Assembly (NCBI GenBank): GCA_029938235.1
Contig: JAOZVH010000001.1
Span: forward strand, 1 to 45,276
Direction of reading: 5' to 3'
Length of the DNA: 45,276 nucleotides
Source: Bacteroidales bacterium
GTDB lineage: Bacteria; Bacteroidota; Bacteroidia; Bacteroidales; 4572-128
Positions 2,601 through 19,711 of the stretch are shown one piece after another; position 1 is the stretch's first letter; each line of letters starts with the position of its first letter. The translations under genes were made by a program, and so were the position numbers. The notes under the pieces are model-generated. The model was not told where the DNA came from, made no database searches, and was given only the letters and a program-made list of their open reading frames with translations.

Positions 2601-4136
2601 TATTAATTTTTTTTTTATAATTTCTATACTTTTTTCAATACGATTGATAACTTCTTCTTTTTTAATTAACTCGCAAATTTCAAAAATAGAAGGTCCAAAA
2701 GAAAGTCCAGTTAAAGCTAAACGAAAAACATTTAAAAGCTGTCCCATTTTTAAATTTTTTTCTTCTAAAAAATTTTTAAAAACTTTTTCTATTTCCATTT
2801 TATTGAAATTTTCTATTTTCTGAACTTTAATTTTCAATTCATTTAAAATTTCTGGAGTTTCTTTTTTCCATTTCTTTTTTATAACTTTTTTATCATATTT
2901 TGTCGGTGATTTAAAAAAGTAACTTGCTTGTTCCCAGAAATCTTTTATGAAAACCGCTCTATCTTTCATAGAATTACAAACCTTAGAAACATATTCATCA
3001 GAAAAATTATGATTTTTTTCTTTCAAAATAACTTGAAATAAATTTGTTAATTCTTCATTAGACTTTCTTTTTAAATAATTTTGATTGAACCATTCAGCTT
3101 TTTTATGGTCAAATTTAGAACCAGATTTTCCAACTCTCTCCAAAGAAAATTCTTTAATTAGCTCTTCCATAGAAAAAAGTTCTTTTGTTGTTCCGGGATT
3201 CCAACCAAGAAAAGCAAGCATATTTACAAAAGCATCAGAAAAATAACCATCTTCTTTGTAACCAGATGAAATTTCTTTTGTTTTTGGGTCTTCCCAGCGC
3301 AAAGGAAAAACAGGAAATCCCATTTTATCTCCGTCTCTTTTACTTAATTTTCCCTTTCCATTTGGTTTTAAAAGAAGTGGAAGATGAGCAAATTCTGGCA
3401 TATCTTTTTCCCATCCAAGATATTGATACAAAAGTTTATGCGTTGGTAAAGAAGGTAACCATTCCTCTCCTCTAATAACGTGAGAAATTTTCATTAAATG
3501 ATCATCTACGACATTTGCAAGATGATAAGTCGGCATACCGTCAGATTTAAAAATAACTTTATCGTCTAATTTTGAAGAATGAAATTCTACCCAACCTCTG
3601 ATAATATCGTAAATTTTAACCTTTTCATTTCTTGGAATTTTTATTCTAATAACATAAGGAACATTATTATCAAGTAATTTTTTTACTTCATCTGCCGACA
3701 AAGTCAAAGAATTTCGCATATTTAATCTGGTAATTCCATTATATTGTGGTGTTTTTACTTTTGCTTTTCTCAAATCTGCACGCATTTTTTCCAGTTCTTC
3801 AGATGTATCGAAAGCGTAGTAAGCAAAATTTTCTTTTAATAATTTATCAGCATATTTTTTATAAATTTTTTTTCTTTCTGACTGTCGGTAAGGAGCAAAA
3901 TCTCCACCTATTCCAACTCCTTCATCGAAATTTATATTACACCATTTTAAAGATTCTATAATATATTTTTCCGCTCCTTCAACATAACGATTTTGGTCAG
4001 TGTCTTCTATTCTCAAAATAAAATCCCCATTATGTTTTTTTGCAAATAAATAATTAAATAAAGCAGTGCGTACACCACCGATATGTAAAGCTCCGGTTGG
4101 ACTTGGAGCAAAACGTAATCTTACTTTTTTTTCCAT
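2565..4136 (-). CDS. gltX: Glutamate--tRNA ligase (GluRS)
   Basis: 523-aa ORF with the class I HIGH motif (PSPTGALHIGGVRTA) and a KMSKS-type motif (KLSKR). The GluRS-like catalytic core and anticodon-binding tail are present. The last ~15 codons are encoded by a repeat unit. Confidence 0.93.
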   Translation of the reverse strand: MEKKVRLRFAPSPTGALHIGGVRTALFNYLFAKKHNGDFILRIEDTDQNRYVEGAEKYIIESLKWCNINFDEGVGIGGDFAPYRQSERKKIYKKYADKLLKENFAYYAFDTSEELEKMRADLRKAKVKTPQYNGITRLNMRNSLTLSADEVKKLLDNNVPYVIRIKIPRNEKVKIYDIIRGWVEFHSSKLDDKVIFKSDGMPTYHLANVVDDHLMKISHVIRGEEWLPSLPTHKLLYQYLGWEKDMPEFAHLPLLLKPNGKGKLSKRDGDKMGFPVFPLRWEDPKTKEISSGYKEDGYFSDAFVNMLAFLGWNPGTTKELFSMEELIKEFSLERVGKSGSKFDHKKAEWFNQNYLKRKSNEELTNLFQVILKEKNHNFSDEYVSKVCNSMKDRAVFIKDFWEQASYFFKSPTKYDKKVIKKKWKKETPEILNELKIKVQKIENFNKMEIEKVFKNFLEEKNLKMGQLLNVFRLALTGLSFGPSIFEICELIKKEEVINRIEKSIEIIKKKLIKKFFEKNVIFF

Positions 4137-11598: not shown

Positions 11599-11638
11599 TT
11601 TTTATAAAGATTCCAAAGTTTTGGAATCTTTATAAAAA
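11599..11638. terminator. Bidirectional hairpin terminator between convergent genes
   Basis: Perfect 19-bp arms (11599-11617 and 11620-11638) centre on ATTCCAAAGTTTTGGAAT, with A/T runs on both sides. The hairpin lies between the stop at 11587 (+) and the stop at 11643 (-). Confidence 0.6.
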
Positions 11639-11642
11639 AATT

Positions 11643-12959
11643 TTATGATAATCTAAATGTTATCGGAATAGACATTTTTATTTTAACTTTTTCTCCGTTC
11701 TTTTCTCCAGCTTTCCATTTTGAAAATTTAATTACTCTAATTGCTTCTTTTTTAAACCCTGGGGAAACTTCAACTCTACCTTTAAACTTATTTTCTTTTT
11801 CATTAAAAGCAAGAGTTGCTACAATTTCTACATCTATTATACTTCCATCTTTGTCTATCACAAAAGAAACAAATACTTTTTGCTGTAATCCTTCTGCTTT
11901 CTCTTTTTCAGGAAATTTAATGTTTTTTGAAAGAAAAACATTAAAAGCATTATTATCACCTATAAACTTCGGCATCACTTCTGCAGTATTCAAAACAACT
12001 TCTTCTTTAATGTTATTTTTATTATCTCCCTCACTGATAATTTTTGAAGTTTTTGCTTTTTTTGTTTCATTATTTATAACTTCTCCCTCGTCTGAGCATG
12101 CGGAAAATATAAATAAAACAATTAAAACTGGCAAAGCAAATAAAATTTTGAATTTGCTTTTTTCTGAGGACTTAATTTTTGTCATCATAACTAAACGATT
12201 TTTTATTGTTAATTGATTAAAATAATTTGCGATATTGTAATTTGAATAAAAAACTTCTTCCAAAATTAAACGCTTATAAGAAACAGAATTTTTTGTTTTC
12301 TTCAAAACACCGTCATCTGCAAGATATTCATGAACTTCGGAAATGGATTTTTTATACAAATAAATTAATGGATTGAACCAAAAAATAATTTTAAGAACTT
12401 CTAAAAATAATAAATCTAAAGAATGAAATTGTTTAATATGAACTTTTTCATGTAAAACAATTTTGCTTTTTTTGATGTCAGAAAAAATATCTTTAGAAAT
12501 AAATAAATAATTGAAAAATGAAAATGAGGAACTTTTTTTATCTAATAAAACAAAATTTATATTTTTTAATTTTATGACCTTATTTTTATAAATAATTTTT
12601 TTTATAAAAAATATTTCTTTCATTAAAAAGAAAAAAAATATAAAAGAAATCAAAAAATAAATTAAAAATATAATATCAAATTCATTAAAAAAAGCCTCGT
12701 TTTGAGTAAAATTTTTTTTTGAAATATCTATTTCATTTAAATTGAAATTAAAAATATTTTCATTTTCAATGAAAGTTTCAAAATTTAAAAATGGAATTAC
12801 TAGGGAAAATAAGACAGAAAAAATTAAATAAAAACGGTTTAATTTAAAATTTGTTTCGTTTTTTAAAAACAAAAAATAAATCAAATACATAAAAAACAAA
12901 TTTAAAAATAATTTGTATTGATAAATGAAAAAGCCGTTTTCTAAAATAAAATTAAACAT
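11643..12959 (-). CDS. BlaR1/MecR1-like M56 peptidase signal transducer with C-terminal TonB_C-like domain (copy 1)
   Basis: 438-aa ORF with a multi-TM N-terminus and an HExxH motif (HEKVH, nt 12438-12452). The C-terminus is TonB_C-like (MPKFIGDNNAFNVFLSKNIKFPEKEKAEGLQQKVFVSFVIDKDGSI). It overlaps the upstream blaI-like gene by 8 nt. Confidence 0.8.
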   Translation of the reverse strand: MFNFILENGFFIYQYKLFLNLFFMYLIYFLFLKNETNFKLNRFYLIFSVLFSLVIPFLNFETFIENENIFNFNLNEIDISKKNFTQNEAFFNEFDIIFLIYFLISFIFFFFLMKEIFFIKKIIYKNKVIKLKNINFVLLDKKSSSFSFFNYLFISKDIFSDIKKSKIVLHEKVHIKQFHSLDLLFLEVLKIIFWFNPLIYLYKKSISEVHEYLADDGVLKKTKNSVSYKRLILEEVFYSNYNIANYFNQLTIKNRLVMMTKIKSSEKSKFKILFALPVLIVLFIFSACSDEGEVINNETKKAKTSKIISEGDNKNNIKEEVVLNTAEVMPKFIGDNNAFNVFLSKNIKFPEKEKAEGLQQKVFVSFVIDKDGSIIDVEIVATLAFNEKENKFKGRVEVSPGFKKEAIRVIKFSKWKAGEKNGEKVKIKMSIPITFRLS

Positions 12960-13368
12960 TTTTATTGTTTTTTTTTATTTTAATTTCTTTTTCTACCAGT
13001 TTCATTAATTCTTCTAATTCTTTGACATTCAAATCATTTTCCCTAGAAAAAAACGAAAGTAATTGTCCGAAAGAATTGTCAAAATAATTTCCTATAAATT
13101 TTGAAAGAAAATTTTTTGTATAATCTTTTTTTTCAATTAACGGAAAATATTCATGTGTTTTTCCGTAAACTTTATGAGAAACAAAATTTTTCCTTTCCAA
13201 AATTCTTACTATGGTAGAAACTGTATTATATGCTGGTTTAGGCATTTTAAAATGAGAAATTATGTCTTTTACAAATCCTTTTTTTATCTTCCAAAGGATC
13301 TTCATAATTTGTTCTTCAGCTTTTGTTAAGTCTTTTTTAATCATTTTTTTTAATTTAAAATTATGCAA
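12952..13368 (-). CDS. BlaI/MecI/CopY-family winged-helix transcriptional repressor (copy 1)
   Basis: 138-aa ORF. LTKAEEQIMKILW...YNTVSTIVRILERKNFV is typical of the Penicillinase_R family. It sits upstream of an M56 partner and is translationally coupled to it. Confidence 0.85.
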   Translation of the reverse strand: MHNFKLKKMIKKDLTKAEEQIMKILWKIKKGFVKDIISHFKMPKPAYNTVSTIVRILERKNFVSHKVYGKTHEYFPLIEKKDYTKNFLSKFIGNYFDNSFGQLLSFFSRENDLNVKELEELMKLVEKEIKIKKNNKNV

Positions 13369-13381
13369 ATATAAGTCTTTT

Positions 13382-13397
13382 TTAGTTATGCAACTAA
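13382..13397. promoter_or_regulatory. Candidate BlaI-like operator palindrome TTAGTT-ATGC-AACTAA
   Basis: A perfect 6-bp-arm inverted repeat lies 14 bp upstream of the blaI-like start codon at 13368 on the minus strand. A paralogous site lies at 15226-15241. Confidence 0.4.
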
Positions 13398-13404
13398 TTT
13401 TATA

Positions 13405-13537
13405 GTTAATAATTTACGTTTTTTTTTAAAAAAAATTGTAAAGTGTTGATTGTCAAGTGAAAAAATTTAATTATTAAAATTTTGAACGAATTAAAAAAAA
13501 AAATTTTTTAATTTGAAATTTAAAAATATTAAAATTT
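13405..13537. repeat. About 2 units of the intergenic AT repeat family (GACG orientation, degenerate)
   Basis: TAATTTACGTTTTTTTTTAAAAAAAATTG and ATTAAAATTTTGAACGAATTAAAAAAAAAAATTTTTT are both present. Confidence 0.65.
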
Positions 13538-14803
13538 TTATAATCTAAATTTAACACAAAATCCTGTTATAACATTTACGTTTTCCCCATGGTTTCTTGC
13601 AGGGGTAAATTTTAAATTTTTAGTTAATCTAATAGCTTCATTTTTAAATGCCTGAGAAACTTCTACAACACTATCTATTTGATTTTCATTATCTAAATGA
13701 AAAGCTCTAATAACTTTCACATTTTGAACACTACCGTCTTTCCAAACTATAAAACTAAGAAGTACATCGGCTTGTAAACCAGCTTCTTTTTCTTTCTTTG
13801 GATATCTGATGTATTTTTTAAGTTGATCACTAACATAAATAAAACCATCATTTTCCATTTCTTCTGAATACCTTGGTTGTTCTACTTCATCAAGCTGATA
13901 AATTATAGTATTTTTATCTATTATTTTATCGTTTTCTGAGCATGCAGAAAATATAAATAAAACAATTAAAACTGGCAAAGCAAATAAAATTTTGAATTTG
14001 CTTTTTTCTGAGGACTTAATTTTTGTCATCATAACTAAACGATTTTTTATTGTTAATTGATTAAAATAATTTGCGATATTGTAATTTGAATAAAAAACTT
14101 CTTCCAAAATTAAACGCTTATAAGAAACAGAATTTTTTGTTTTCTTCAAAACACCGTCATCTGCAAGATATTCATGAACTTCGGAAATGGATTTTTTATA
14201 CAAATAAATTAATGGATTGAACCAAAAAATAATTTTAAGAACTTCTAAAAATAATAAATCTAAAGAATGAAATTGTTTAATATGAACTTTTTCATGTAAA
14301 ACAATTTTGCTTTTTTTGATGTCAGAAAAAATATCTTTAGAAATAAATAAATAATTGAAAAATGAAAATGAGGAACTTTTTTTATCTAATAAAACAAAAT
14401 TTATATTTTTTAATTTTATGACCTTATTTTTATAAATAATTTTTTTTATAAAAAATATTTCTTTCATTAAAAAGAAAAAAAATATAAAAGAAATCAAAAA
14501 ATAAATTAAAAATATAATATCAAATTCATTAAAAAAAGCCTCGTTTTGAGTAAAATTTTTTTTTGAAATATCTATTTCATTTAAATTGAAATTAAAAATA
14601 TTTTCATTTTCAATGAAAGTTTCAAAATTTAAAAATGGAATTACTAGGGAAAATAAGACAGAAAAAATTAAATAAAAACGGTTTAATTTAAAATTTGTTT
14701 CGTTTTTTAAAAACAAAAAATAAATCAAATACATAAAAAACAAATTTAAAAATAATTTGTATTGATAAATGAAAAAGCCGTTTTCTAAAATAAAATTAAA
14801 CAT
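13538..14803 (-). CDS. BlaR1/MecR1-like M56 peptidase signal transducer with a divergent TonB_C-like C-terminal domain (copy 2)
   Basis: 421-aa ORF whose first ~288 aa are identical to copy 1, including HEKVH at nt 14282-14296. The C-terminal ~130 aa are different but still TonB_C-like (YPKKEKEAGLQADVLLSFIVWKDGSVQNVKVI). Confidence 0.8.
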   Translation of the reverse strand: MFNFILENGFFIYQYKLFLNLFFMYLIYFLFLKNETNFKLNRFYLIFSVLFSLVIPFLNFETFIENENIFNFNLNEIDISKKNFTQNEAFFNEFDIIFLIYFLISFIFFFFLMKEIFFIKKIIYKNKVIKLKNINFVLLDKKSSSFSFFNYLFISKDIFSDIKKSKIVLHEKVHIKQFHSLDLLFLEVLKIIFWFNPLIYLYKKSISEVHEYLADDGVLKKTKNSVSYKRLILEEVFYSNYNIANYFNQLTIKNRLVMMTKIKSSEKSKFKILFALPVLIVLFIFSACSENDKIIDKNTIIYQLDEVEQPRYSEEMENDGFIYVSDQLKKYIRYPKKEKEAGLQADVLLSFIVWKDGSVQNVKVIRAFHLDNENQIDSVVEVSQAFKNEAIRLTKNLKFTPARNHGENVNVITGFCVKFRL

Positions 14804-15212
14804 TTTTATTGTTTTTTTTTATTTTAATTTCTTTTTCTACCAGTTTCATTAATTCTTCTAATTCTTTGACATTCAAATCATTTTCCCTAGAAAAAAACGA
14901 AAGTAATTGTCCGAAAGAATTGTCAAAATAATTTCCTATAAATTTTGAAAGAAAATTTTTTGTATAATCTTTTTTTTCAATTAACGGAAAATATTCATGT
15001 GTTTTTCCGTAAACTTTATGAGAAACAAAATTTTTCCTTTCCAAAATTCTTACTATGGTAGAAACTGTATTATATGCTGGTTTAGGCATTTTAAAATGAG
15101 AAATTATGTCTTTTACAAATCCTTTTTTTATCTTCCAAAGGATCTTCATAATTTGTTCTTCAGCTTTTGTTAAGTCTTTTTTAATCATTTTTTTTAATTT
15201 AAAATTATGCAA
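14796..15212 (-). CDS. BlaI/MecI/CopY-family repressor (copy 2, identical protein)
   Basis: The 138-aa ORF is identical to 12952..13368. Confidence 0.85.
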   Translation of the reverse strand: MHNFKLKKMIKKDLTKAEEQIMKILWKIKKGFVKDIISHFKMPKPAYNTVSTIVRILERKNFVSHKVYGKTHEYFPLIEKKDYTKNFLSKFIGNYFDNSFGQLLSFFSRENDLNVKELEELMKLVEKEIKIKKNNKNV

Positions 15213-15225
15213 ATATAAGTCTTTT

Positions 15226-15241
15226 TTAGTTATATAACTAA
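15226..15241. promoter_or_regulatory. Candidate operator palindrome TTAGTT-ATAT-AACTAA (paralog of 13382-13397)
   Basis: The arms and position match copy 1. Only the 4-bp centre differs, ATAT versus ATGC. Confidence 0.4.
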
Positions 15242-15254
15242 TTTTGTAGTTAAA

Positions 15255-15600
15255 AAATTTAGTTTTTTTTGAAAAAAATTGTAATCTATTGATTATCAGG
15301 TAAAAAAATTTTTTATTAAAATTTTGGACGAATTTGAAAAAAATTTTTTTTTGATTTTGATTTTAAAATTATTAAAATTTTGAACGAATTTAAAAAAAAA
15401 AATTTTTTTTAAAATTTAAAAATTATTAAAATTTTGGACGAATTTGAAAAAAAATTTTTTTTTGATATAAAAAACATTAAAATTTTGGACGAATTTTGAA
15501 AAAAAATTTTTTTATTTTGAAATTAAAAATATTAAAAAAATTGACGTTTTTTCAAAAATTTTTTTTTATTTAAAAAAATTGACATTTTTTTGAAAAAAAT
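15255..15600. repeat. Array of ~7 units of the intergenic AT repeat family (GACG orientation)
   Basis: ATTAAAATTTTGGACGAATTTGAAAAAAATTTTTTTT-type units have anchors at 15327, 15383, 15437, 15488, 15543 and 15581. Confidence 0.9.
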
Positions 15601-15603
15601 ATT

Positions 15604-16383
15604 ATGAAAAAAGATTTTAAAAAATCATTAGTTTTAAATGATGATGTATTAAAAAGGTTAATGAAAATTATAAGCACAAAATCAGATAAAGAAAAATTTA
15701 ATTCTTGGTTGGATGATGAGTATAAATTATTAACTGAATCTGGAAAAATTTTAAATTTTCGTTCAGCGACATTAGAGAAATTGATGGAAATTGTAAATAT
15801 TGAACAAGCAGATGAAGAAAATAAATTTTTAAAATGGTTCTCATATAAATATGAATTATCAAAAGAAGAAAAAATTTTTTTGAAAAATTTAATAAAAAAA
15901 AATAAATTTTATCTTAACAGTTATAATGAACAAACTTTAATAGCAAAATTTATAGCAATTCTTCTTTATAAAGTAAACTTCAGTAATAAATATATAAAAG
16001 ATTGGTATGAATATGCTATAAATTGCAAATTAAATGGCTGGACATTAGTTGGTTATCCTGATTTTTTTGTTGCAACCGGAATAAATGAGCCGAAAAAGCC
16101 TTATTTTTTTCTTCAAGAATATAAAAAAGGAGTAAATTTCAATGGTAATCCTGAATATCAAGTGCTTGCTGCAATGCTTGCCGCAATTACTTTAAATAAT
16201 ACAAATACTATAAAAGGTGGTTATATAATTGGCGCTTATTGGAAGTTTATGATACTCAACAAATTAGAAAATGGAAATTATGAATATTTTGTCTCGAAAG
16301 GTTTTGATTGTTTGGATTTCTATGAATTGAAAAAAATTTATATTTATTTGCAAGCAGTAAAAATGCTATATTGTAAAAAATAA
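15604..16383 (+). CDS. PD-(D/E)xK-like nuclease-fold protein (HsdR-N-terminal-like), paralog of 6478..7134
   Basis: 259-aa ORF. The PD dipeptide lies at nt 16057-16062, and the E and K of QEYKK lie at 16117-16125. NEQ lies upstream and QVLAAMLAA downstream. Repeat arrays flank the gene on both sides. Confidence 0.55.
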   Translation: MKKDFKKSLVLNDDVLKRLMKIISTKSDKEKFNSWLDDEYKLLTESGKILNFRSATLEKLMEIVNIEQADEENKFLKWFSYKYELSKEEKIFLKNLIKKNKFYLNSYNEQTLIAKFIAILLYKVNFSNKYIKDWYEYAINCKLNGWTLVGYPDFFVATGINEPKKPYFFLQEYKKGVNFNGNPEYQVLAAMLAAITLNNTNTIKGGYIIGAYWKFMILNKLENGNYEYFVSKGFDCLDFYELKKIYIYLQAVKMLYCKK

Positions 16384-16394
16384 TAATATATTTT

Positions 16395-16940
16395 GATTTA
16401 AAAAATATTAAAATTTTCACGAATTTGAAAAAAATTTTTATTTTGGAATTAAAAAATCTTAAAATTTTCACGTTTTTTGAAAAAAATTTTTTTATTTTCA
16501 AATTAAAAAATCTTAAAATTTTCACGTTTTTTGAAAAAAATTTTTTTATTTTGAAATTAAAAAATCTTAAAATTTTCACGAATTTGAAAAAAATTTTTTT
16601 ATTTTGAAATTAAAAAACATTAAAATTTTGGACGAATTTGAAAAAAATTTTTTTTATTTTTAAATTAAAAGATGTTGAAATTTTGGACGTTTTTTGAAAA
16701 AAATTTTTTTTTATTTGAAATTAAAAAATATTAAAATTTTGGACGATTTTTGAAAAAAATTTTTTATTTAAAATTGAAAAATATTAAAATTTTGGACGAT
16801 TTTTGAAAAAAAAATTTTTTTTATTTTAAAATTAAAAAATATTAAAATTTTGGGCGTTTTTTGAAAAAATTTTTTTTATTTAAAATTAAAATGTTAAATT
16901 TTAATTATTTTTTGAAAAAAAAATTTTTTTATTTATTAAA
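16395..16940. repeat. Largest array, ~10-11 tandem units of the intergenic AT repeat family (GACG orientation)
   Basis: Anchors are CACG at 16418, 16469, 16523 and 16577, GACG at 16631, 16686, 16742 and 16795, and GGCG at 16853. The period is 51-58 bp. There are two sub-blocks, TCTTAAAATTTTCACG units followed by ATTAAAATTTTGGACG units. Confidence 0.92.
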
Positions 16941-16984
16941 AATAAATTTTTTATTAATTTTAAGAAATTTTTTTTTATATTTTT

Positions 16985-19711
16985 ATGAAATTCAAATTTA
17001 CAATAACAAAAAAATTAGGAATTGGTTTTATAATATTATTAATAGCTGTTGTTATTAATGCTTATTTAATTTATATAACAGCAGAAGAAAATCGTGAAAC
17101 CAGCATTATGATAACACAAATCTATATGCCTTCTGTTTCTTATCTTCACGATTTATCATATATTATTAATAATTCTAAATTTTTAATTAAAAGCTGGGTG
17201 CTTGTTGATAGAAAAGAAGATACACCTGAAAAAAAACTTTTAAAAAATTTACATAATATAAAATATGTAAATTTAGAAAAAAAAATATCAAATAAATTCG
17301 TTTTCTTATGGAAAGAAAAAGATAAAAAAATATTTTTCAAAACAAAAATATTGATAGAGAAACTCTTTAAAAAACACAAAATTATAATGAGTCAACTAAA
17401 AGATTTTGAAAGCTATGAAAACCCACTTGTATTTTTTGAAATTAACCCACAAGTAGAAACTAATGGAGAAATTATAGAACTGACAGATGAAATTTTGAAA
17501 AAATTAAATATTTTAATAGAAAATCAAGAAAAAATTGTTGATAAATTAAATAGTCAAATTATTAAAGATTTTTCGTGGTTTGAAAGGCTGGTTGTTTATA
17601 TGGGGAATATAATGGGTATTATTGTTCTTTTGACAGGAATTGTTACAATAAGAGCAATAAAAATTCCACTGGAGTTTATAAAAAATATTGTTCTTGATAT
17701 GGGGAAAGGCATACTTCCAAAAAAAGAAATAAAAGTAAGCAATGACGAAATTGGAGAAATGAGTATCGCTTTAAATATACTTGTAAAAAATTTAAAAAAA
17801 ACCTCAGAATTTTCCGAAGAAATAGGAAAAGGAAATTTTAAAATAGAGTTTACCTCTCTTAGTAAAAATGATTTACTAGGAAATTCTTTAATAAAAATGA
17901 AAAATGAACTTTATAATGCTTCTAATGAAGAATCATTAAGAAAAAAAGAAAACGAAGAAAGACGATGGACAACTAACGGTATAGCAATGTTTAGTGATAT
18001 TTTACAAAAAAATGATGATAATATTAATAATTTTTCTTTCGATATAATTAAAAATCTAATAAAATATGTTGAAGTAAATCAAGGAGGATTATTTATTATT
18101 AATGATGAAGATAAAAATGATGTTTTTTTAGAACTAATGGCAAGCTATGCTTATGGTAGAAAAAAAATATTAGAAAAACGAATAGAAATAGGAGAAGGAC
18201 TTCTCGGAAGATGTATGCAAGAGCAAGAAATAATTTATATCACAGATCTGCCAAAAACATACATTAATATTGGTTCTGGACTTGGAGATTCTAAGCCTCG
18301 TTCTTTACTTATTGCTCCTTTAAAAGTAAATGAAAAAATTTATGGAGTTATAGAAATTGCGTCTTTTTTCCATTTGAAAAATTATAAAATAGAATTTGTA
18401 GAAAAAATAGGTGAAAATATTGCATCAGCAATTGCTACTCTGAAAACAAATTTAAATACTGTCAGATTATTAAAAGATGCAAAATTTAAAGAGGAAGAAC
18501 TTGCCATAAGAGATGAAGAAATGCGTCAAAATTTAGAAGAATTACAAGTTACCAAAGAAAGTCTTGCAAAACGAGAAAAAGAACAACAAAGAGCAATTAA
18601 AATTTTAAACATAGAAAATAAAAAACGCATAGGAGAAATTATGGAAAAAGATTTAGAAATGAGAGGACAATTAAACGCTGTAGATAATACCACAGCGGTT
18701 GTTGAGTTTGATATGAAAGGAAAAATTAAAAGAGTAAATAAATTATTTGAGGAATTAATTGGATATTCGGATGAAGAAATGGTTGGTAATAGCTACAATT
18801 TATTTATTTCTGAAGAGAAAGAAGAAATAAAGTTTCATAAAAAATTGTGGGACGATTTGAATGAAGGAGAAATATATTCCGGAGAATTTGTTAATATAGA
18901 TAAATTTGGAAAGGAAATATGGTTAAAATCAACTTATGTACCTGTTTTAGATAAAAATAAAAAACCTTATAAAATCATTGCGTCTTCTTTAGATATAACA
19001 TCTGATAAATTAACTTTCTTAGATTTAAAAGGAAAAATCAAGGGGATAGAACGTTCAAATGCAATTATTGAAATGGATATTAATGGTAAAATTATATCTA
19101 TTAATGAGTTGTTTGCTGATTTATTAGAATATCCAATGAAAGAAATTATCGGAATGAATCACGATAATATCGTAAATAAAGAATATGTAACAACAAAATT
19201 TTATGCTGATTTTTGGAATAAACTAAAAAAGGGAGAATTCATAAAAGGTGCATTTAAAAGAATTAAAAAAAATGGTGATGCAATATGGGTTAGTGCATCT
19301 TATAATCCAATTTTTAATATTAGGAATAATATTTATAAAATAATTATTTTCGCTCACGATATTACAAAACAAAGAAGAACATTTAAAAATTTAGAAATTA
19401 ATAATAAAAAATTATTAGAGCAAGAAGATAAATTCCAACAAAAAATAGAAAAAATAAGAACTTTAAATGAAAAATTAAAAGTTCAAGTTTCCGAAGAAAA
19501 TAAGAAAAATATTAAATTAAAAGAAAAAGAAGAACAGAATTTTAATTCTATGAAAGAAATGAAAATTTTAAATGATAAATTAAAAATTAAAGTTTCCGAA
19601 GAAAACAGAAAAAACGATGAATTAAATGAAAAAATGGAGCAAATTTCCGCTTCTATGGAAGAAATGAAATCTTTATATGAACAGATTGAAAAAAATAGAG
19701 AAAAAAATTAG
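16985..19711 (+). CDS. Membrane sensor: 4HB-like periplasmic module, TM, HAMP, GAF, PAS, PAS and a C-terminal coiled coil; no recognisable catalytic output
   Basis: 908-aa ORF with an N-terminal TM (GIGFIILLIAVVINAYLIY) and a second TM followed by HAMP (IKIPLEF...SNDEIGEMSIALN). GAF is visible (NQGGLFIINDED...GEGLLGRCMQEQE...YGVIEIASF). Two PAS-like blocks are present (AVVEFDMKGKIKRVNKLFEELIGYS and AIIEMDINGKIISINELFADLLEY). A duplicated coiled-coil tail ends in EQISASMEEMKSL. Confidence 0.75.
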   Translation: MKFKFTITKKLGIGFIILLIAVVINAYLIYITAEENRETSIMITQIYMPSVSYLHDLSYIINNSKFLIKSWVLVDRKEDTPEKKLLKNLHNIKYVNLEKKISNKFVFLWKEKDKKIFFKTKILIEKLFKKHKIIMSQLKDFESYENPLVFFEINPQVETNGEIIELTDEILKKLNILIENQEKIVDKLNSQIIKDFSWFERLVVYMGNIMGIIVLLTGIVTIRAIKIPLEFIKNIVLDMGKGILPKKEIKVSNDEIGEMSIALNILVKNLKKTSEFSEEIGKGNFKIEFTSLSKNDLLGNSLIKMKNELYNASNEESLRKKENEERRWTTNGIAMFSDILQKNDDNINNFSFDIIKNLIKYVEVNQGGLFIINDEDKNDVFLELMASYAYGRKKILEKRIEIGEGLLGRCMQEQEIIYITDLPKTYINIGSGLGDSKPRSLLIAPLKVNEKIYGVIEIASFFHLKNYKIEFVEKIGENIASAIATLKTNLNTVRLLKDAKFKEEELAIRDEEMRQNLEELQVTKESLAKREKEQQRAIKILNIENKKRIGEIMEKDLEMRGQLNAVDNTTAVVEFDMKGKIKRVNKLFEELIGYSDEEMVGNSYNLFISEEKEEIKFHKKLWDDLNEGEIYSGEFVNIDKFGKEIWLKSTYVPVLDKNKKPYKIIASSLDITSDKLTFLDLKGKIKGIERSNAIIEMDINGKIISINELFADLLEYPMKEIIGMNHDNIVNKEYVTTKFYADFWNKLKKGEFIKGAFKRIKKNGDAIWVSASYNPIFNIRNNIYKIIIFAHDITKQRRTFKNLEINNKKLLEQEDKFQQKIEKIRTLNEKLKVQVSEENKKNIKLKEKEEQNFNSMKEMKILNDKLKIKVSEENRKNDELNEKMEQISASMEEMKSLYEQIEKNREKN

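Follow-up and report, generated by a model that had tools for sequence, protein, structure and literature searches.

The window, by which we mean the whole analysed stretch of 45,276 nt (contig JAOZVH010000001.1 of the Bacteroidales assembly GCA_029938235.1), carries two tandem units, each with a gene for a BlaI-type repressor followed by a gene for an M56 (BlaR1-like) sensor that ends in a TonB_C domain. The two units, copy b on the left and copy a on the right, share a near-identical core and differ in their C-terminal cassettes. The features are as follows.

11599-11638 (no strand): AT-rich hairpin separating the copy b sensor gene from the convergent sigma-54 activator gene, AAAGATTCCAAA-GTTT-TGGAATCTTT; likely the terminator of the left unit
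11643-12959 (-): copy b sensor gene, an ORF of 438 aa; M56 (BlaR1-like) zinc protease with four TM helices plus TonB_C
11643-12090 (-): cassette b, the diverged part; disordered linker and TonB_C domain, 149 aa
12091-13389 (-): core copy b, 1299 nt, 1298/1299 identical to 13935-15233
12952-13368 (-): blaI copy b, BlaI/MecI/CopY-type repressor (Pfam Penicillinase_R, E=5e-29)
13383-13396 (no strand): operator-like palindrome b, TAGTT-ATGC-AACTA, directly upstream of a TAnnTTTG-type -7 box
13390-13537 (-): copy b promoter/intergenic region, 82% identical to its counterpart at 15234-15381
13538-14803 (-): copy a sensor gene, an ORF of 421 aa; M56 protease fused to a TonB_C domain
13538-13934 (-): cassette a, linker and fast-evolved TonB_C domain, 132 aa
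13935-15233 (-): core copy a, 1299 nt, from sequence comparison with core copy b
14796-15212 (-): blaI copy a, identical to copy b
15227-15240 (no strand): operator-like palindrome a, TAGTT-ATAT-AACTA
15234-15381 (-): copy a promoter/intergenic region, leading into an array of ~54-nt repeats

Sensor and repressor proteins

Both copies matched Penicillinase_R, Peptidase_M56 and TonB_C in Pfam, all above the cut-offs. The BlaI match to Penicillinase_R (PF03965; cut-off 22.6 bits) scored 101 bits (E=5.1e-29) and spanned profile positions 1-114 of 115. For Peptidase_M56, with a cut-off of 31 bits, the copy b and copy a sensors scored 57.5 and 58.4 bits, and for TonB_C 50.2 and 38.5 bits, the latter over profile positions 2-79 of 79 (TonB_C E=3.5e-13 and 1.6e-9 in the two sensors). 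The copy b repressor is 138 aa long if translation starts at TTG and 130 aa if it starts at the ATG at 13344, the start and length given by public gene calls at the same locus, and its gene overlaps the sensor gene by 8 nt. The residues of the M56 zinc site (HExxH; H170, E171, H174, H210 and E211) were invariant in 72 homologues. AF2 models (pLDDT 85 for the copy b sensor and 84 for copy a) placed TM helices at residues 2-32, 38-57, 93-125 and 266-287, predicting a four-TM topology with the cytoplasmic protease domain between TM3 and TM4. Foldseek matched the TM and protease part of both sensors to BlaR1 (8EXQ and 8EXR, probability 1.0) and both TonB_C domains to the TonB CTD 6I97_D (target-normalised TM-score 0.73-0.82). 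A reading of the locus from its letters alone (hereafter the sequence-only reading) had allowed that the C-terminal cassettes might be frame-disrupted remnants; by Pfam, AF2 and Foldseek both are intact, confidently folded TonB_C domains.

The arrangement resembles S. aureus BlaI/BlaR1 and MecI/MecR1, in which a winged-helix repressor gene lies beside a four-TM M56 sensor gene (here the two overlap). As in BlaR1, the HExxH and downstream HE motifs are conserved, and the predicted fold matches its TM and protease part (BlaR1 cryo-EM structures 8EXP/8EXQ/8EXR). Unlike BlaR1/MecR1, the penicillin-binding (class D beta-lactamase-like) sensor domain is absent, the C-terminus being TonB_C by Pfam and by fold, and unlike bla and mec the locus has no neighbouring beta-lactamase or PBP gene. 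The sensors are thus M56-family proteins and not beta-lactam sensors of the BlaR1 type. Also absent are the TonB-type single N-terminal TM anchor that pairs with ExbB/ExbD, the N-terminus being the four-TM M56 protease, and the proline-rich periplasmic spacer, the linker (residues 290-320) being acidic/lysine-rich and disordered. The same combination of Peptidase_M56 and C-terminal TonB_C in about 440 aa is found in TonB1 (BT0813) and TonB10 (BT3898) of B. thetaiotaomicron, which are functionally uncharacterised (PMC10350073). M56-TonB_C homologues number in the hundreds at 30-40% identity, and such proteins rank with the commonest BlaR1-like ones in Bacteroidota, gut Bacteroides included. Unlike BT0813 and BT3898, the gene pair here is tandem-duplicated, its core is homogenised and its TonB_C domains carry a lineage-specific insertion.

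A near-identical core between diverged flanks

The sequence-only reading described two copies offset by exactly 1844 bp, which holds for 12091-13389 against 13935-15233. Throughout these 1299 nt, comprising the right half of the operator-like palindrome, the 5' UTR, the whole of blaI and M56 codons 1-289 through TM4, the single difference that it reported (12102 G, 13946 A) is indeed the only one; read from the sequence, it is a synonymous change at the third position of Ser286, and it leaves an exact match of 1287 nt (12103-13389 against 13947-15233). Its statements that the repressors are identical at 138/138 aa (from TTG) and the sensors up to ...FIFSACS (residues 1-289) were likewise confirmed, as was the observation that the C-terminal parts differ and are still TonB_C-like: they are 132 and 149 aa long, end in FRL and FRLS, and share 40% amino acid identity over the alignable part (59% in nucleotides). 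At the other edge, perfect identity stops at the centre of palindrome b, beyond which the promoter side drops to 121/148 (82%; the earlier estimate was ~85%); in the copy b promoter region the ~54-nt AT-rich repeat occurs once, at 13477-13523. A chance origin is impossible because 1287 identical bases sit between flanks that are 18-41% diverged. Across 419 codons the core has one synonymous difference; over 95 codons of the cassettes dS is 0.5-0.8 and dN about 0.45 (dN/dS 0.56-0.83, fairly high). Judged by this divergence (82% identity upstream; cassette dS 0.5-0.8), both flanks of the core are old.

A survey of related strains, proposed by the sequence-only reading, recovered the same tandem in four other public assemblies (L026, L027, L028 and L031). 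Within strains the two cores differ at 0-1 sites in the window, L026 and L027 and at 8 in L028, counts to be read with the fact that all assemblies are short-read metagenomes or MAGs, where the graph usually merges the copies of a near-identical 1.3-kb repeat into one path that is output twice, so that isolated inter-copy SNPs may have been erased. The 8 sites that distinguish the copies in L028 and L031 lie in core columns 1-111, and copy b of L031 has in addition an in-frame patch that is 7-8% diverged (columns 686-925); since these cores can be told apart, the tandem is real and not an assembly artefact, and homogenisation is patchy. Between strain groups the cores differ at 11-20 sites, the strains differing by 1-1.5%, and at the sites that mark the groups (columns 168, 213, 412, 586-613, 829, 932 and 992) both copies of a strain have the same state. 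Column 1288 is copy-specific in all strains, and the 5' edge of identity varies between strain groups. Each cassette and spacer is specific to its copy and hardly varies from strain to strain, with differences of 0-2 nt in cassette b (n=6 assemblies) and 0/397 nt in cassette a (n=5). The window and L027 are separated by only 8 SNPs in 21 kb; columns 177 and 829 of the core, each counted in both copies, account for four of these. The core states specific to three of the strains recur in independent Logan contigs; one Logan contig ends exactly before column 829, the pattern that would be expected from collapsed paralog SNPs or mixed strains. In four samples, contigs carry a single hybrid copy (promoter a, core, cassette b) with no fork, the expected product of a crossover inside the core. 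Outgroups do not bracket the age of the duplication because the locus was not found in the one other genome of the genus compared (73% completeness).

Probable gene conversion and its alternatives

The best reading of these data, at a probability of about 0.75, is that an old tandem duplicate has undergone partial gene conversion, which keeps the core near-identical. The sequence-only reading had offered conversion that homogenises the regulatory and transducer part and keeps two extracytoplasmic modules as one of two explanations, and it is supported by the old flanks, by the strain-specific core variants that both copies share and by the 5' edge of identity, which is not the same in all strain groups. 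As in concerted evolution, paralogs within a genome are closer than orthologs inside the tract and the reverse holds outside it, and the homogeneity covers synonymous and non-coding sites between anciently diverged flanks. We propose that an old tandem duplication in the lineage gave two blaI/M56-TonB_C operons, that the periplasmic linker, the TonB_C modules and the promoter-distal DNA would afterwards have diverged, and that intrachromosomal gene conversion between the direct repeats would keep a 1.3-kb tract (almost) identical, from the operator half-site through blaI to TM4 of the M56 protein. Crossing-over in the same repeat could occasionally delete one unit, producing the hybrid of promoter a, core and cassette b. 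The tract stops at the end of TM4, where homology yields to the indel-rich disordered linker, and selection may also oppose conversion into the sensor domains.

The other explanation offered was that the tandem arose very recently and that one C-terminal cassette was then exchanged for a TonB_C module of foreign origin or from another locus. Identity does stop abruptly, exactly at the domain boundary after TM4, and genomes of the order have many standalone TonB_C genes beside M56 genes that are possible donors. A recent duplication leaves unexplained that the upstream flank has diverged too (82%), and the genome itself holds no donor, its other TonB_C matches being 36-45% identical to the copy b query protein. 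The best relative of cassette a anywhere is cassette b: they were sisters (84/42 support) in a cassette tree that contains a very long branch, the placement resting mainly on a shared insertion of ~15 aa. This insertion is common to cassettes a and b and a third M56 paralog (on contig C292) only, and was not found in 70 homologues or in the standalone TonB proteins of the genome. Cassette b, with a branch length of 0.84 against 2.6 for cassette a, keeps the MPxFxG strand and KWxxG motif of the family; cassette a is without the conserved MPEFPGG strand. Cassettes that were 'swapped', as the sequence-only reading had it, are therefore not supported, and replacement after a very recent duplication is largely refuted already; we regard it as improbable.

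Could the tandem be an assembly artefact, produced by unrolling a collapsed repeat as a loop or by joining two strain alleles of one locus via AT-rich repeats? The draft is fragmented (328 contigs, N50 13 kb, 7600 N) and has other suspicious repeats (an exact repeat of 1536 nt occupies each end of contig C92, and over 6117 nt C267 matches C274 without a difference), and a dispersed repeat lies inside the spacer between the units. We nevertheless consider this highly improbable, as five assemblies from different samples and projects have the same order of cassette a, spacer, core and cassette b, the distinguishable cores of L028 and L031 are not one graph edge used twice, and the spacer is homologous to the copy a promoter along its whole length. 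Moreover, Logan contigs from three runs have the copy b spacer ahead of the core, and two of them end at the cassette fork, as expected if two cassettes share a core. A further suggestion would dispense with conversion, the core being under extreme purifying selection and the sensor domains evolving fast. Conservation in the family does lie in BlaI and the M56 catalytic region, and the cassette dN/dS is fairly high, but the 5' UTR, the gene overlap and the synonymous sites are identical as well, with one synonymous change beside cassettes of dS 0.5-0.8, and the core differs by 1-1.5% between strains and not between the copies within a strain. This is refuted by the synonymous-site pattern and hardly merits credence.

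Predicted circuit and comparison with known converted loci

BlaI was found by tblastn only at the two tandem sites of the genome. Both tandem promoters have a TAGTT-N4-AACTA palindrome beside a TAnnTTTG box; the 10-nt motif was not enriched genome-wide (18 found, 21 expected). The third M56-TonB_C paralog, on C292, is without blaI but has a homologous promoter with the palindrome, and probably belongs to the same circuit. The function of the locus is inferred throughout. Following BlaR1, an event at the periplasmic domain would activate the cytoplasmic zinc protease, and BlaI would then be cleaved and the operons derepressed. The two sensors, with different TonB_C modules and the same protease and transducer, would act on one BlaI species that binds near-identical operators, and the pair would thus work as an OR gate, in a predicted circuit of two or three sensors and one repressor. 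Our guess is that the TonB_C modules bind a TonB-box-like strand of an outer-membrane protein. The bla and mec systems are paralogous, can occur in one cell and may cross-talk; unlike theirs, the two repressors here are identical and not diverged paralogs.

In our view the locus is not a new kind of system; it clearly exemplifies, in bacteria, an established evolutionary process acting on an uncharacterised sensor family. In the tandem paralogs TLR1/TLR6 of mammals, conversion holds the TM and signalling portions similar and the ligand-binding portions diverge, and independent events in different lineages have nearly the same boundaries (PMC2077338). A boundary also recurs here: G027 and G020, from two other families of the order, have tandem M56-TonB_C paralogs with a comparable mosaic, and in G027 dS is about 0.1 for codons 1-260 and >0.8 beyond, near-identity ending, as in the window, at codon ~289 just after TM4. 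Unlike TLR1/TLR6, which are eukaryotic receptors with no regulator gene in the tract, the tract here includes a repressor gene and half an operator. Among bacterial paralogs, tufA/tufB and H. pylori babA/babB and homA/homB evolve in concert (PMC6053082, PMC4552749, PMC2795765), and there too RecA-type conversion homogenises copies, wholly or in segments; unlike the present locus, the tuf copies lie apart in the genome and undergo conversion from end to end, and the bab and hom genes encode outer-membrane adhesins involved in antigenic variation. The list of 26 prokaryotic genes under concerted evolution in PMC6053082 contains no M56, TonB or BlaI gene.

Perhaps, and we suggest this only tentatively, recurrent conversion up to the end of TM4 is a general rule for tandem M56-TonB_C arrays of Bacteroidota, giving a common transducer and free TonB_C modules; where they are duplicated, repressor and operator would be kept common too. 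If true, multi-input, single-output circuits would evolve through plug-in sensor modules, and the arrays would be the bacterial equivalent of TLR1/TLR6. At this locus the transducer and repressor form one evolutionary unit and the periplasmic part another, with a natural splice point directly after TM4 that is useful for chimera design; the boundary lies at a signal-peptide-like or lipobox-like TM4 end, and the cassette could be a separately processed module. Two-copy, shorter-tract and unconverted-patch strains, together with one-copy deletion derivatives, provide a natural population series for conversion tracts in a bacterial regulatory locus.

The repeated core and its boundaries

The two units lie head to tail on the minus strand of window 11643-15381, in a fragmented draft genome (3.36 Mb in 328 contigs, N50 13 kb, 23.7% G+C). 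In each, a promoter region is followed by a blaI-type repressor gene, which overlaps a sensor gene encoding a four-TM zinc protease of the M56 (BlaR1-like) type with a TonB_C domain fused to it.

Genes of units a and b, and a third paralog in the same genome
11643-12959, minus strand: unit b sensor, 438 aa; the unit adjoining the sigma-54 activator gene
12952-13368, minus strand: blaI, unit b
13538-14803, minus strand: unit a sensor, 421 aa
14796-15212, minus strand: blaI, unit a
Contig C292 (locus L003), 12706-15618: third M56-TonB_C paralog of 583-602 aa, sharing 60% identity with the core protein in its N-terminal part

Positions 12103-13389 and 13947-15233 are exactly identical over 1287 nt at an offset of 1844 nt, and lie within a common core of 1299 nt (12091-13389 and 13935-15233; columns 1-1299) in which the sole difference, at 12102/13946, is synonymous. 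The 5' edge of the core falls in the middle of an operator-like palindrome (TAGTT-ATGC-AACTA vs TAGTT-ATAT-AACTA), from where it takes in all of blaI and then M56 to codon 289 (...FIFSACS), where TM4 ends. The units remain homologous upstream of the core, at 82% identity (121/148). Downstream lie the cassettes, the linker and TonB_C parts of the sensors (132 aa in a, 149 aa in b), with 51 gapped positions in their DNA alignment and an identity of 59% in nucleotides and 40% in amino acids. The sequence-only reading had described the locus correctly in its offset, its one-nucleotide difference, the identity as far as FIFSACS and the divergence of both C-termini and promoter sides.

The boundary between core and cassette follows directly after a lipobox-like end of TM4 (KSKFKILFALPVLIVLFIFSAC/S), with acidic residues next (window 12091-12100, codons 286-289). 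A Cys is found at this position in 30/72 homologues and an AxAQ-like motif in many others; from these ends TM4 resembles a cleavable signal peptide, of which the cassette would be the mature exported module.

Arrays of a ~54-nt AT-rich repeat (AAATTTTGGACGAATTTGAAAAAAATTTTTT...) are located at window 13477-13523, 15316-15590 and 16375-16990, and one repeat copy lies in the spacer between units a and b. Contigs of related assemblies break within these arrays, and a second strain group carries another repeat family at their position (L029:1-250).

Origin of the cassettes and probable exchange between the cores

The cassettes are intact domains and not the frame-disrupted remnants that had been considered as an alternative. 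TonB_C scores above the Pfam cut-off in both copies, and AlphaFold models built on 72-sequence alignments reached a pLDDT of 85 and 84, exceeding 90 in the C-terminal domains. Foldseek matched the N-terminal part to Staphylococcus aureus BlaR1 (8EXQ, 8EXR); for the C-terminal part the matches were TonB C-terminal domains, for example 6I97_D. A sequence search of the PDB gave a marginal TonB match only, the fold relation being seen by structure search. Cassette a is invariant among five assemblies (0/397 nt), and cassette b differs at 0-2/448 nt among six.

The best match of cassette a anywhere is cassette b (68 bits). Distant homologues match cassette b even better than cassette a does, at up to 89 bits, which makes b look like the canonical form. 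A tree of 99 C-terminal domains pairs a and b as sisters (support 84/42), with a very long branch for cassette a (2.6 vs 0.84 for b), which has lost the conserved MPEFPGG strand of the family. On sequence comparison, the clearest argument for a common origin is an insertion of ~15 residues in a beta-hairpin that cassettes a and b share with the C292 paralog, and that is absent from 70 homologues and from the three standalone TonB_C proteins of the genome. Over 95 alignable codons dN is ~0.45 and dS 0.5-0.8, with the same codon used in 24/38 identical amino acids. Best match, tree, shared insertion and dN/dS together indicate that the cassettes and promoter flanks are old in-lineage paralogs, and import of a cassette was rejected on the first three of these. 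The proposal that the cassettes had been swapped is not borne out by their phylogeny. Hypermutation, for example by a diversity-generating retroelement, was also rejected given the invariance of cassette a, the presence of indels and the divergence of the promoter flank.

A recent duplication followed by cassette replacement, one of two explanations offered by the sequence-only reading, is not supported: it does not account for flanks that have diverged on both sides of an identical core, and the cassettes are in-lineage sisters. Selection alone is excluded because synonymous and non-coding sites are identical as well. What remains is homologous exchange limited to the core, and the second explanation offered, gene conversion that keeps the core alike while two extracytoplasmic modules persist, is supported by the old flanks, the identical synonymous and non-coding core sites and the strain-specific variants shared by the copies.

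Related strains and the exactness of the identity

Exact-protein look-ups located the locus in other public assemblies, and the survey of related strains that had been suggested found two-copy and one-copy forms. Both units are present in the same order in L026 (GCA_029935775.1), L027 (GCA_029935755.1), L028 (GCA_029934155.1) and L031 (an ENA metagenome scaffold); flank divergence from the window is 0.46%, 0.04% and 1.3% in the first three respectively. When all twelve core copies were aligned, the columns that separate strains (168, 177, 213, 412, 586-613, 829, 932 and 992) agreed between the two copies of each strain, and column 1288 (= 12102) distinguished copy a from copy b throughout. Columns 177, 829, 932 and 992 correspond to window 13213/15057, 12561/14405, 12458/14302 and 12398/14242. 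Eight sites in columns 1-111 separate the copies of L028 and L031, in which the copy-a promoter is another allele, 25% diverged from that of the window. The 5' edge of identity therefore lies at column 1 in the window's group; in the L028/L031 group it falls between columns 111 and 168. As L028 and L031 resolve the copies as different sequences, the tandem is real; these two also show that homogenisation is patchy and took place more than once.

Copy b of L031 also contains an in-frame patch (columns 686-925; L031:2924-3223 spans columns 686-980) that is 7-8% diverged from all other core copies, with 11 amino-acid changes; the scaffold ends inside it. The C292 paralog was rejected as its source, and the patch may be a relic that escaped conversion or may have come in from a diverged lineage. 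Mismatches between the window and L028 are unevenly spread, at 0-10 per 400 nt in most bins, so no claim of unusual conservation of the cassettes or unusual variability of the core among strains is justified. In L122, a 1425-nt contig of GCA_029935815.1, the core match stops at column 906 and unrelated sequence runs from position 1277; the contig may be chimeric, or the tail may mark an insertion that another strain has in its sensor gene.

All of the assemblies are from short reads; a near-identical repeat of 1.3 kb then forms a single edge of the assembly graph that is written out twice, and isolated copy differences may be lost. Of the eight SNPs between the window and L027, half fall at core columns 177 and 829, each in both copies, and one Logan contig stops just short of column 829; both observations fit erased copy differences. 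Two others speak against a strong effect. The MAG-specific states recurred in Logan contigs of three runs (L114 as in the window, L115 as L026 at columns 932 and 992, L116 as L027 at column 177), on which random resolution of equal-coverage bubbles would rarely agree, and all of the four or more independent group-specific sites are uniform within each assembly. The runs named by Logan contigs with this locus are SRR21545380, SRR21545382, SRR21545385, SRR21545387, SRR7051036 and SRR6301446. An identity of at least 99% between the core copies, with variants that are strain-specific and shared by both, can be taken as established; exact identity holds for the assembled sequence.

Four contigs from four samples (L029, L030, L120 and Logan L121) run from the copy-a promoter through one core to cassette b with no fork, as a crossover between the cores would be expected to leave. 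The name of L120 suggests a MEGAHIT contig. Read pairs are not used by MEGAHIT or Logan, so the unforked contigs are probably real one-copy variants, with loop-skipping a possible alternative for the scaffolded L029 and L030. Within the window's own assembly, the first 1536 nt of contig C92 are repeated exactly at the contig end (offset 1953) and C267 and C274 are identical over 6117 nt, which are signs of redundancy or unrolled repeats.

Predicted regulatory circuit, known parallels and recurrence

BlaI genes occur in the genome only at the two places in the window; the repressor is common to both units, and their operators are near-identical. The C292 paralog is without a blaI gene, and its promoter, with a TAGTT-ATTA-AACTA palindrome and a TAnnTTTG box, is homologous to both window promoters. 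Genome-wide, TAGTT-N4-AACTA was found at 18 sites vs 21 expected, giving no regulon beyond the three homologous promoters. By analogy with BlaR1, a trigger at the periplasmic module would activate the zinc protease of the sensor, leading to cleavage of BlaI; with a single repressor species, all three promoters would be derepressed by either input. Ahead of the C292 paralog lie ~54-nt repeats and a PD-(D/E)xK-like gene with homology to window 15604-16383.

The tandem genes are members of the M56 and BlaI families but lack the penicillin-binding sensor that defines BlaR1, and likewise the single TM anchor and proline-rich spacer of TonB. The M56-TonB_C proteins TonB1 and TonB10 of Bacteroides thetaiotaomicron have been treated as uncharacterised (PMC10350073). 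The evolutionary pattern is that described for the tandem paralogs TLR1/TLR6, in which conversion is confined to the transmembrane and signalling part with recurrent boundaries (PMC2077338), and is related to the segmental conversion of Helicobacter pylori outer-membrane paralogs. A published list of concertedly evolving prokaryotic genes includes no M56, TonB or BlaI gene (PMC6053082). The M56-TonB_C/blaI tandem is therefore a well-documented new case of known kinds, in both its families and its evolutionary pattern, rather than a kind of its own.

Adjacent M56 pairs are rare in the order: a Pfam search of 121 genomes found them only in the window's genome and in G020, a genome of another family. 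A third, from another family again (G027), came from a separate protein search, and the claim of recurrence is thus based on three arrays. Both other arrays are mosaics similar to that of the window. In G027 one blaI is followed by two sensors, near-identical (96.5%) from -99 to +866 relative to the start codon, with dS rising from ~0.1 over codons 1-260 to >0.8 beyond; near-identity stops after ...FAFACNKE, codon ~289, the same structural point as in the window. In front of the second sensor, the -99 stretch is what is left of a blaI 3' end (L126, G027:C4:857500-864500, 3459-3557); translated, it gives the C-terminal ~30 residues of the BlaI whose gene precedes the first sensor. This array, too, therefore arose from a duplication that took in blaI, or the remnant is carried along by conversion. 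The G020 array is complex, with three genes and one repeat unit that is out of register, two of its three sensors having a dS of 0.05-0.29 over ~340 codons and 1.3-1.5 at the end. The C-terminal domains in both genomes are lineage-specific sisters, with 65-76% identity vs 95-97% in the N-terminal part.
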